The notes: a model not told the origin generated them from the letters alone. Positions 22,401 through 61,930 are shown, counted from the first letter of the stretch. The stretch: 64,000 bases of DNA from an uncultured Chlamydiae bacterium (GCA_963696295.1 CAVOJR010000001.1:32001-96000); one strand, 5' to 3'. Program-made: numbers and translations.

Positions 22401-24598
22401 AGCCGGAAACCCTGGTCAGAAATAATTCTATGAGACCTAACGCGCTCTCTTCCATCCCTGAGGAGGACGCCGAGCAGGTCGATTACTTTGGCAATAACCT
22501 GCTCCATTTGGCAATCATTTATAATCAGATCACCCTCATTCCGATCATTCTTCGGCAATATCCCTCTCTCTTTTGGAAAAAAAATGAAATGCAGCAAATG
22601 CCGATCGAATGCGCGATAGGCCACCCGAATAAACGGGCATTATTTGAAGAACTTATTAATGAAGAATTTAGAAATGCCGGAATCAGAAATCAAAAGCTGT
22701 CAGATTTATCCACCAAATTTTTTATAAATATGAAAGGGGCTGCGCCTCTTATCCATATTTTAGCGGCTGCCCAATTGAGCGATAAAGCAAAAGAATTAAT
22801 TGCGGAAAATGGGGATATTGCCAAAGAGAGGGACCCCTTTAACAGGCAGCAAACCGCCCTCCATATTGCCGCTAAAAATGGGTTTTGCGACTTCATAGCC
22901 ATTTACAAAAAGCTGGGAAAGGAGTATTTACTTCTCAAAGACCGCTTTTCCAACACGGCCGGACATATTGCTGTCATATACGGTCAAGACGCGTTTGCGA
23001 AGGCCTGGGTGGAAGCCACAGAAAATCTGACAGAAAAAAATAATGACGGGAAAACCCTGGTCCATCTTGCGGCCTTTAACGGAAATGTTCCCCTTCTAAA
23101 TTTTTTTTCCGAGCGTAAAGCCTCCTTTAAAGAACCGGACGCGCATCTGGATCTCCCCTTGCATCTGGCTGCCTTGCAAGGCTATATAGGCGCTGTCAAA
23201 TTCCTCTACGAAAAGTACAAGGAAGGCATTAATTGGCAAAATGAGGATGGCATGACCCCCATGCACTACGTGTGCCTTTGCCCAAGCGACCAGGAAAAGA
23301 GAATTCACCAATCATTCTTGTATGAAAATCCACAATATAGATTGTCCACCACCCCTGTAGTTTCACTCTCTGACGAAACACTAGCGATAAGTCTCCCTAA
23401 AGAGCCTCTGGAGATCCTCAATTATCTCCTCACCGAGACAGATGCGCCGGAAATTCAGGATATCACAGGAATGACCCCTCTCATGATGGCTTCCGCCAGC
23501 GGAAGGGACGACCTGGTTACGGCTTTGTTGCAAAATAAAAGAGGAGCTGACATACGCAAAAAAGACCTGGAATACAGAACCGCTCTTCACCATGCCACCC
23601 TGGAAGGTCAAACTAAGGTTGTCCGCCTTCTTTTAAAGCACGATGCCACGCTTGCAAGGCCTGACCGGAAAGCTCTGGCCATCTCTTTAGATATCAACTT
23701 TGAAAGGCCTTTACATACCATTGCAAAGAAAAGGATTGGGTACAAAGAACACGATGATCCCCAAGAACTTATCGCTATGACAGACCTTTTCATAGCCTAT
23801 GGGGCCAATCTTGGACTTCAGGATGGAAATGAAAAAACGGCCCTCCATTTGGCCGCAGAAAATGGTCTGCTCCAATTGGTAACCCATTATATGGGCTTGG
23901 CCACAAATCCCGATTATGCCGATCAAAAGAAATGGCTTTTCGCCCCGGACCGGCAAGGAAAGACCCCCCTGCATTATGCGGTCAGCAATAATTTTCCAGA
24001 TATTGTGGAAGTCTTGCTGGGCGGGCGTATGGATCCTGATTCAAAAGATAAGGAAGGGTTTACCCCTCTTCTCTACACGGCAAAAAGCAGTTCGCCAGCC
24101 ATTGCTAAACTCTTAATCGACAGCGGCGCGGATGTCGATGCCCGCGATCCCAATGAAAACACCCTCGTCCACCTCATTTTACAAAAGGATGCGCTCGAAG
24201 AAAGCGACAAAGAATTGCTAACCATGGCGCTCACTAGAAATAGCGCTCTTTCAATCAGCTGCAACAGCCAGAGAGCCGGAAAAATGCGCCCCATTCACAT
24301 CGCGGCAGCCAAAGGGCACGTAGAGATGATCGACTTCCTTTCCGAATACATGGGGGCCATAAAAGAGGAGCTAGTCGATCATTTGTGGGATCCGGACGGG
24401 CAAGGACGAACCGCGGGGGCCATAGCGGAGGCTGAGGATCAAAAAGCCTTTGCCTATGCCTGGCGCACAATGAAAAAGAGCGACTTAAAAGTTAAAGTAC
24501 AAAAAGACCGCTTCGGATTAAAACAAAAATGGAAAAAGGTAACAAAACGCTTTAGTAAAAAAGTTGATGTTAACCAAAACCTCAACTTGTCAAACTAA
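19454..24598 (+). CDS. Large ankyrin-repeat protein with helical (ARM/HEAT-like) N-terminal region
   Basis: Many G-x-T-(P/A)-L-H-x-A repeats from ~aa 580 onward; Ser/Pro/Thr-rich N-terminus. Confidence 0.92.
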   Translation: MKFLTNTVTPRPTSSSISPANAYLSPTTLRIHTVADRLFVEFANSLMSLKGDDAAAALNLIPLTRRDKWDENVKILFDLFQRIIQGKLAATQSDKSLPEKAEEYYFIALDRETEVFLLRNEILRQDPAFFQRASISDRYRDMTPDDFQAEFYNSPDRDLLREVGLKKIEQYKERALKEGKILPRQLPKVREILYKMFACDDLELQESALQNLTELIERDPLLISGADKLIQLHDDILGLLESEKCRFLHPTILSRLIKLYALTLELILLYHGPQCALIVHEKTKDRAWDMAQLLKKLNTAKDPELQFWGDYAYECAKNLKTLTTEAEEWLKRLVLLLKATGTTVTAITTHNTVASIADCIEDFKKVFHHLERKKEWFLPVLTTRKLCHFALHETAIFPKIIPMIQNFKQSKSPHILQGMIGILESMALLTDKEEIIKGVLKLLIQYGRLPDPAVSLRIVKACICIYNNKTNPKLSTTAYILLHLFHAARMIEGGEANDLVQATFAEWKQQASEKEKPDFYEPVVVSFLKNYADKKIGVHECKEPLVTALIPSVHPEVEAILACLGNELKFLQAAAPDPDGYTAYHIAAREGYFHLVKQIKSSLKIDINYQDNLLRNTALHIAVLQKNVKTAKALIECGANPNIKNKEGNTPLHLALMENNLELIEILTEGKSDPRALNQLRKTPIDLAIELDNPAILDLLIGNRPSDLFTIIIKAAKLKKFACLKALLQRNTEIPPYVALQIYKMMTSENNDKAMIEFIGFHLEQRKKESYSKGFEPFDHLPQPKIINNAITLVTERKVDSDLLTHLLIFVKEGKSDLKNSAIDPYIAKKDPRGLDYAAAVPELSPLIPKLIEAGFDLRQIDHFSLSPIHIAVIHNNVKGAKELLNKGANVNTPTPQRKFTPLHIAVYLQNEEMVDLLLENGANLKAKTIFGDTPLHILMLKDELFDDRIPVYPLIHESLKESVKRQEGKEAILLEKLFKKLKPETLVRNNSMRPNALSSIPEEDAEQVDYFGNNLLHLAIIYNQITLIPIILRQYPSLFWKKNEMQQMPIECAIGHPNKRALFEELINEEFRNAGIRNQKLSDLSTKFFINMKGAAPLIHILAAAQLSDKAKELIAENGDIAKERDPFNRQQTALHIAAKNGFCDFIAIYKKLGKEYLLLKDRFSNTAGHIAVIYGQDAFAKAWVEATENLTEKNNDGKTLVHLAAFNGNVPLLNFFSERKASFKEPDAHLDLPLHLAALQGYIGAVKFLYEKYKEGINWQNEDGMTPMHYVCLCPSDQEKRIHQSFLYENPQYRLSTTPVVSLSDETLAISLPKEPLEILNYLLTETDAPEIQDITGMTPLMMASASGRDDLVTALLQNKRGADIRKKDLEYRTALHHATLEGQTKVVRLLLKHDATLARPDRKALAISLDINFERPLHTIAKKRIGYKEHDDPQELIAMTDLFIAYGANLGLQDGNEKTALHLAAENGLLQLVTHYMGLATNPDYADQKKWLFAPDRQGKTPLHYAVSNNFPDIVEVLLGGRMDPDSKDKEGFTPLLYTAKSSSPAIAKLLIDSGADVDARDPNENTLVHLILQKDALEESDKELLTMALTRNSALSISCNSQRAGKMRPIHIAAAKGHVEMIDFLSEYMGAIKEELVDHLWDPDGQGRTAGAIAEAEDQKAFAYAWRTMKKSDLKVKVQKDRFGLKQKWKKVTKRFSKKVDVNQNLNLSN

Positions 24599-61930: not shown

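Follow-up and report, generated by a model that had tools for sequence, protein, structure and literature searches.

What leaves the end of a gene standing a second time behind it, at some loci with unrelated genes in between? The question is raised by a stretch of 64,000 nucleotides (nt) from an uncultured Chlamydiae bacterium (hereafter the window; C1:32001-96000 of a two-contig, 3.43-Mb, 97%-complete genome, G000). In this window, a first-pass annotation had noted five loci, (a) to (e), where the 3' end of a gene is repeated in direct orientation, in two cases around inserted cargo, and had attributed all five to one integrase-free process acting at gene ends. All five direct repeats exist by self-comparison and alignment. 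In our view, they may be read as three kinds of scar left by the host's ordinary recombination, for which no dedicated enzyme would be needed: the cargo loci, (a) and (d) in the window and 25 genome-wide, would be insertions with long target duplication, (b) and (c) tandem duplications, and (e) a tract of gene conversion. Coordinates without a contig name are counted from the first letter of the window.

Duplicated gene ends across the genome

We called genes using our own hexamer model with long-ORF filling (2949 genes; individual starts and short open reading frames (ORFs) are uncertain) and compared the genome with itself by BLAST. Of the local matches returned, 510 were direct and 7 inverted, so the repeats are not due to chance. 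The local matches resolve into 120 tandem arrays, 73 of which do not lie within a single gene, and 68 spaced pairs. One copy lies in a gene in 40 of the spaced pairs, and the extra copy is then found downstream in 29 (25 loci after removal of four redundant rows) and upstream in 11; 18 of the 25 downstream cargo loci reach to within 30 nt of the stop codon. Repeat lengths run from ~40 to 310 nt genome-wide, and array units from ~33 to 220 nt. Thus, the direct repetition described for the window loci is real, but a common geometry of a terminal ~90-125 bp is not.

A uniform test was then applied to 2279 ORFs, each represented by its last 70 nt, its first 70 nt and a mid-gene 70-mer. A dead nearby copy was identified for the last 70 nt of 56 ORFs, for the first 70 nt of 12 and for the mid-gene segment of 8 (p 6e-8), so that the enrichment at 3' ends proposed from the window is borne out genome-wide. 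Similarly, among the locus-unique arrays on C1 (n=108), 29 span a stop codon, 6 a start codon and 2 both, with 40 inside a gene and 31 intergenic or otherwise placed; random segments span stops in 4.6% of cases and starts in 5.1%. Arrays also favour convergent gene pairs (28/67) and avoid divergent ones (5/67), of which the genome has 461 and 460 respectively, as predicted by selection against the disturbance of promoters. Copies that span the stop leave both the gene and its promoter intact, and survivorship most likely explains much of the 3' bias. Stress from convergent transcription could cause a similar skew between convergent and divergent pairs.

Polar growth of arrays out from the live gene was not seen, the nearest unit being the closer in 7 arrays and the farthest in 11. 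An origin driven by miniature inverted-repeat transposable elements (MITEs) was considered and rejected, as dispersed repeats are not enriched at the duplications (3/27 cargo rows and 7/67 arrays, with 125/1073 intergenic regions for comparison). In C1 arrays and at cargo loci, dead copies often open with 5-12 nt left over from upstream, after which a short deletion lies near the joint; this may reflect either alignment ascertainment or an error-prone joint.

An assembly artefact is an unlikely source of the repeats, as array units differ by substitutions and multi-base deletions, and one junction between units of locus (b) is bridged by a short-read contig (the junctions of (a), (c), (d) and (e) are unbridged). 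This 151-nt contig, from a public soil run that may be the source sample, equals 37380-37530 without a difference. No credible excised circle or empty-site joint was detected in three soil runs, at a coverage so shallow that absence from them is no evidence against either; one joint with 22-nt sides that emerged from this search is probably from another organism.

Cargo enclosed by two copies of a gene end

The host of locus (d) is a ubiquitin-specific-protease (USP)-family gene (48602-49885, plus strand; Pfam UCH, E 9e-29; homologues at 34-53%). Its live 3' end (49771-49885, plus) recurs as a dead copy at 50985-51096 (plus), adjoining a convergent HtrL/YibB gene; the two copies are 94% identical with one 3-nt gap, and the similarity stops exactly at the TGA. 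This 115-nt repeat is without distant copies in the genome and encloses an insert of 1.1 kb, the cargo of which (50104-50960, plus; GC 0.42) consists of two short ORFs of 142 and 138 amino acids (aa) without a family. Fragments identical to this cargo are present in three soil runs, and a search with the 142-aa ORF returned identical sequences only. By eye, the two cargo ORFs are rich in Ser/Thr/Pro at the front and hydrophobic over a stretch close to the C-terminus, and are in this respect tail-anchored-like. The only terminator-like site in the scan around (d) falls inside the cargo.

At locus (a), the host is an ankyrin-repeat gene (19454-24598, plus; Pfam Ank_2, E 2e-109). Self-alignment places the live copy of its 3' end at 24430-24603 (plus) and a dead, internally deleted copy at 26084-26190 (plus), where it abuts the stop of a convergent Ham1-family gene. 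The repeat pairs 24430-24517 with 26084-26171, 80-170 nt before the ankyrin stop, and is 86% identical over a 66-nt core. Gapped alignment adds an extra 8-nt match at the stop, so the pairing of 24435-24602 with 26092-26188 in the earlier annotation is reasonable for a copy that has eroded. As in (d), the repeat (66-90 nt) is without distant copies in the genome; the insert measures 1.6 kb, and its cargo (GC 0.38) is a 392-aa orphan ORF (24783-25961, minus) with no Pfam or NCBIfam family, for which a protein search returned the identical sequence only and there was no usable Atlas match. Directly behind the ankyrin stop lies a small dispersed, MITE-like hairpin repeat of ~130 nt (24606-24734, unstranded), with ~15 other genomic matches, plasmid contig included, which is probably a later insertion.

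Over the 25 loci, the cargo measures 0.55-7.7 kb and has a median GC of 0.38, against 0.47 for the genome. Paralogues, mostly distant, are found in the genome for 20 of 43 cargo ORFs. Genes for HepT and nucleotidyltransferases occur in the cargo alongside an antidote protein, a Schlafen-AlbA protein, an ATPase and orphans; low in GC and often orphan, the cargo supports the earlier inference that foreign DNA is trapped. A Pfam scan of cargo-locus regions covered 81 of 99 ORFs from 20 regions. Save for one flanking resolvase, no integrase, transposase or phage gene was detected in the window cargo or among these 81 proteins, and no restriction-modification family was detected among the cargo proteins scanned (the cargo of several of the 25 loci lies outside the scan). 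A 254-aa protein encoded at one large cargo locus recurs identically at two other places and may be borne by an insertion sequence. At the QueC locus (L012:3400-3460), the only one checked for truncated cargo, the cargo gene is intact and its stop lies immediately against the dead fragment of QueC. The hosts had been described as all accessory or effector-like, a description that does not extend to the genome: by Pfam they include QueC, a lipoate ligase, a xanthine-dehydrogenase-type molybdoenzyme, GcvT, an FtsX permease, a UvrA-like protein, an M24 peptidase, MFS and PLD proteins, and orphans too.

Insertion is established at one locus, outside the window. At C1:210-214 kb, 2.7 kb of cargo separates a PLD gene from a dead PLD end downstream that runs into dapB. 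In 6 of 27 dapB loci of relatives, those of both same-family genomes among them, PLD and dapB are immediate neighbours, and in 5 more PLD lies within 750 nt; the cargo at this locus is therefore a gain, the dead copy retains the ancestral neighbour, and the empty site is the ancestral state. The comparison genomes include none of the same genus and two of the same family (LigA 67% and 59% identical). No relative with an empty site for (a) or (d) was found in a USP scan of genome contigs or in a metagenome scan; the latter yielded distant matches only, with a query that was an over-extended ORF whose front is antisense to a tadA-like gene. A neighbouring orphan was not found in the two same-family genomes, and the MFS-TerC and FtsX loci have no shared neighbours within the short flanks compared with relatives. 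The comparison with relatives proposed in the earlier annotation thus gives an empty site, at gene level, for the PLD-dapB locus, and none for the window's own cargo loci.

Tandem arrays and a homogenised tract

Locus (b) is a tandem array of four units of ~103 nt each (37268-37693, plus) at the end of a 140-aa ORF without a Pfam family (36923-37345, plus). In each unit, the stop stands between the last 25 codons and 48 nt of 3' flank, which carries a hairpin and T-run; the hairpin is partly deleted in the dead units. Locus (c) consists of two 91-nt units (44502-44691, minus) that are 96% identical and share an 8-nt overlap (microhomology). Its host is a 1294-aa ORF without a family (44582-48466, minus), a homologue of which lies upstream of the same neighbour in another genome (G001). 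Here the unit ends ~12 nt before the stop inferred to be the original one, a stop overlapped by the start of a methylthiotransferase-type gene (Radical SAM and UPF0004; 43280-44500, minus); the live gene has gained a new 5-residue tail, and the inferred original ending is kept in the downstream unit. Junction overlaps at the three young two-copy duplications examined are 8 nt (locus (c)), 14 nt and 2 nt, the junction of (b) shows an imperfect short match, and eroded arrays are beyond measurement. Loci (b) and (c) are likely microhomology tandem duplications that arose by slippage and were amplified later.

The ORF of locus (e) (59510-61930, plus) is made up of two tandem paralogous halves, both coding, with 43% aa identity. 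The end of the first half (60611-60699, plus) matches the end of the second (61823-61911, plus) at 82 of 89 nt. Over the last 30 codons, third-position identity is 87%, against 53% elsewhere in the halves. Such a short tract in otherwise saturated halves resembles gene conversion between tandem paralogues; as both copies are coding, (e) is not a dead gene end, and from its alignment it is likely a gene-conversion tract between old tandem paralogous halves. With two coding copies at (e), and an inferred stop omitted from the unit at (c), the proposal of one process for all five loci finds no support.

Recombination enzymes and comparison genomes

Neither a reverse transcriptase (PF00078) nor Cas1 (PF01867) was found in the 97%-complete genome, and the seven tyrosine recombinase matches genome-wide include none in the window or near the duplication loci, so that the earlier remark that no integrase or reverse transcriptase accompanies the repeats stands. 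Judging from protein matches, RecA, MutS and ComEC are encoded (RecA and ComEC over the cut-off). A Ku gene overlaps a ligase-only gene for the ligase of non-homologous end joining (NHEJ; L011:7010-8571), and a LigD polymerase domain was not found in the genome.

Among 31 genomes of the order searched for Ku, 4 gave a match. In 0.4-Mb samples of three comparators, 3' dead copies were detected for 11 of 280 ORFs in G002, which is of the same family, for 2 of 281 in G018, a draft assembly with Ku in which arrays may be collapsed, and for 2 of 287 in G019, with partial Ku. Ku was not found in G002 (94% complete), which shows the trait. Across these three comparators, the trait therefore seems to follow the family, not Ku, and dependence on Ku is unsupported. 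A larger sample of G002 (1.2 Mb, 789 ORFs) gave 29 dead copies of 3' ends, 7 of 5' ends and 12 of mid-gene segments, six of the 3' rows coming from collagen-like repeats. In the same genome, a dispersed element itself forms tandem arrays, and one of its copies lies between two copies of a gene end (L036, L041, L044).

Origin of the copies

For the cargo loci we favour one-sided recombination with DNA of a close relative, to which we give a probability of about 0.5. In this scheme, the relative's DNA would recombine through the shared gene at one end and be joined illegitimately at the other, upstream of the end of the resident gene, and the old gene end would thereby be stranded behind the incoming end and the incoming neighbour genes. 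Over the 25 loci, live and dead copies differ at 39 first, 42 second and 89 third codon positions, a third-position share of 52% (89/170), whereas at most 46% is predicted for copies identical at birth (p 0.046 at omega 0, 0.005 at omega 0.2). As judged from these alignments, the excess leans weakly to diverged alleles. The presence of RecA, MutS and ComEC also agrees with the scheme, RecA and DNA-uptake genes being what it would call for.

The place where similarity ends was assessed by the length of match between the live sequence after the stop and the flank of the last dead copy, a measure picked after the sequences had been inspected. Of 37 array rows, 19 were set aside (two genes ending in the unit, a trailing partial unit, or no stop copy left), leaving 18 usable; 11 of the 25 cargo loci were measurable, and 9 remained once two had been dropped as spurious. 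Similarity ends within 3 nt of the stop at four of these nine, and at the PLD locus too, which is explained by a homology boundary with a relative that has other genes downstream.

Several observations weigh against this reading. Private variants of single dead array units fall at the third position in 21 of 46 cases, and the third-position signal would also arise if the live allele had been replaced later. The three youngest cargo loci, 99-100% identical and with sharp ends 14-25 nt past the stop, fit copies identical at birth equally well. Outgroup residues are uninformative or split, with one site each way in the FtsX permease and USP homologues that are too distant, and no strain close enough to give the empty allele of any window locus was found, so that donor and recipient are not assignable. 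Moreover, homology-facilitated illegitimate recombination is described as rare (PMC5361080). Finally, cargo-free arrays also have a junction anchored at the stop, something not expected of plain slippage: in 6 of the 18, the similarity ends 0-3 nt past the stop (1.4 expected, p 0.0015). This stop-anchored junction is the surviving part of the original idea of a process at gene ends; the peak is not clearly repeated in G002 (3 of 19 usable rows only).

Could the copies instead have been born identical? If staggered nicks or a restarted fork copied 40-300 nt during the repair of a break, direct rejoining would leave a tandem repeat and a captured foreign fragment a cargo locus, with the 3' bias supplied by selection. 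Such repair is possible but, in our judgement, doubtful. It suits the near-identity and sharp ends of the youngest cargo loci, the overlap in length and the common polarity of tandem and cargo repeats, and an aggregate pN/pS of 0.38, by our estimate near the expectation for one live and one dead copy; Ku and its adjacent NHEJ ligase could serve it. Yet the third-position share exceeds the bound for copies identical at birth, random breaks leave the ends at the stop unexplained, the genome search gave no LigD polymerase domain, and G002 has the trait although the search there gave no Ku, while the Ku-positive G018 barely shows it. Two separate steps, with slippage first leaving a neutral tandem copy behind a gene and unrelated illegitimate recombination afterwards bringing foreign DNA into the array, seem most unlikely. 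Tandem arrays are indeed common (the 73 not confined to one gene) and would be neutral targets, and the dispersed repeat lodged between two copies at one G002 locus agrees with such an order; however, this sequence of events leads one to expect a partial unit beside the live copy, of which none is visible by eye in the three youngest loci, and dispersed repeats show no enrichment at cargo loci or arrays.

The stop-anchored junctions bear most directly on a process aimed at gene ends, whether through termination of translation or of transcription, that would both duplicate and trap DNA. The ends at the stop in arrays, cargo loci and the PLD locus agree with such a process, as do the QueC cargo gene, whose own stop abuts the dead copy, and the 4-5 fold excess of 3' over 5' duplications. 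Nevertheless, we consider it quite unlikely: the unit of (c) excludes the inferred stop and that of (b) runs 48 nt beyond it, only 3 of the 19 usable G002 loci end within 3 nt, neither reverse transcriptase nor Cas1 was found, host genes show no excess on the leading strand (14/36, genome 51%), and the 40 in-gene arrays show that duplication occurs inside genes too. As regards the feature targeted, terminators find no support, with (c) in an inferred coupled gene junction and the terminator-like site of (d) inside its cargo, but junctions at 0-3 nt are compatible with stop codons. A related reading, a family-specific route in which the joint is set by the stop codon, incoming or sister DNA being trimmed at the coding end and rejoined 40-150 nt upstream to give a tandem seed without cargo or an islet with it, is unlikely as well.

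Further features of the window and the second contig

Beside locus (a), a Ham1-family gene (minus) and a tadA-like gene (plus) diverge at 26186-27274; as the long ORF of each continues antisense through the other, both mechanical ORFs extend too far. A 482-aa ORF without a Pfam family begins with three in-frame repeats of a 48-nt unit starting with ATG (28738-28883), and a tandem paralogue of this ORF lies at 30191-31507. A multi-module frame of more than 4000 aa with repeated adenylation-type motifs enters from the window start (97-12303); from these motifs, we take it to be nonribosomal peptide synthetase-like. The 135-kb contig C2 encodes a second USP-family protein (P0005), 34% identical to that of the window, and has a gene-end duplication of its own at 101352/105026.

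Relation to known systems

These loci could represent the integrase- and transposase-free gain of small blocks of orphan, toxin-antitoxin-like and defence-like genes by a bacterium of intracellular type. With ~25 cargo loci and ~30 arrays in one genome, they offer material for testing the origin of long target duplications, left open by published work. Should the peak of junctions at the stop codon hold in more genomes, the origin of bacterial minisatellites and gene islets would be tied to one recombination step, and if the joint is truly set by the stop, one integrase-free route would both seed gene-end minisatellites and capture genes behind any gene; should the peak fail, the genome would be an unusually dense example of known scars. 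We found no published account of the pattern in chlamydiae in the literature searched (subscription papers not covered).

The pattern had been offered as a candidate new mechanism, but insertion with long target duplication is already published with the same selective explanation. In Furuta, Abe and Kobayashi 2010 (PMC2853133), the class comprises inserts of <20 kb between locus-unique direct repeats of >30 bp, with no mobility gene and often low GC; the repeats often span a start or stop, for which the selective advantage of an intact gene is invoked. An earlier source, Nobusato et al. 2000, is known to us via a citing paper. The cargo loci described here share the structural features of this class, with repeats of >30 bp unique in the genome, inserts of <20 kb, low GC, no mobility gene in the window cargo and repeats that often span the stop, save for restriction-modification cargo and, at the window loci, an empty site. 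They differ in that the published cases were screened for restriction-modification cargo, whereas the cargo here is orphan, toxin-antitoxin-like or defence-like, and in that ~25 cases, strongly 3'-polar, occur in one genome.

The recombination that we favour has a counterpart in the homology-facilitated illegitimate recombination and C-terminal displacement described for type VI secretion system and Rhs effector loci with variable tips (PMC5361080). There, as here, homology would anchor the upstream side and the distal side would be joined illegitimately, which would leave the old 3' end downstream of a new module; the hosts here, however, are single-copy genes, many of them housekeeping, with 82-100% identity between the stranded and the live end. 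The cargo-free arrays resemble microhomology-mediated tandem duplications (treated in PMC13167724) as well as variable-number tandem repeats (VNTRs) in their locus-unique units, short junction overlaps at the young pairs examined, probable later growth in copy number and depletion from coding regions. Their units are longer (~33-220 nt), a third of the usable arrays join at the stop, and the 3' excess of 29 to 6 is stronger than the 10 stop-overlapping against 6 start-overlapping VNTRs given in one survey (PMC3689786). Islands bounded by the attL and attR sites of integrases likewise have a direct repeat of a gene end that flanks cargo and restores the host gene. This genome has two tRNA-Ser examples, at C1:327479-334339, where small islands are bounded, in classical att-like fashion, by two tRNA-Ser genes and an additional perfect 49-nt copy of the 3' end of one of them. 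In contrast to such islands, the window loci have no integrase in or near them, their repeats are mutually unrelated, and their targets are protein-coding genes.

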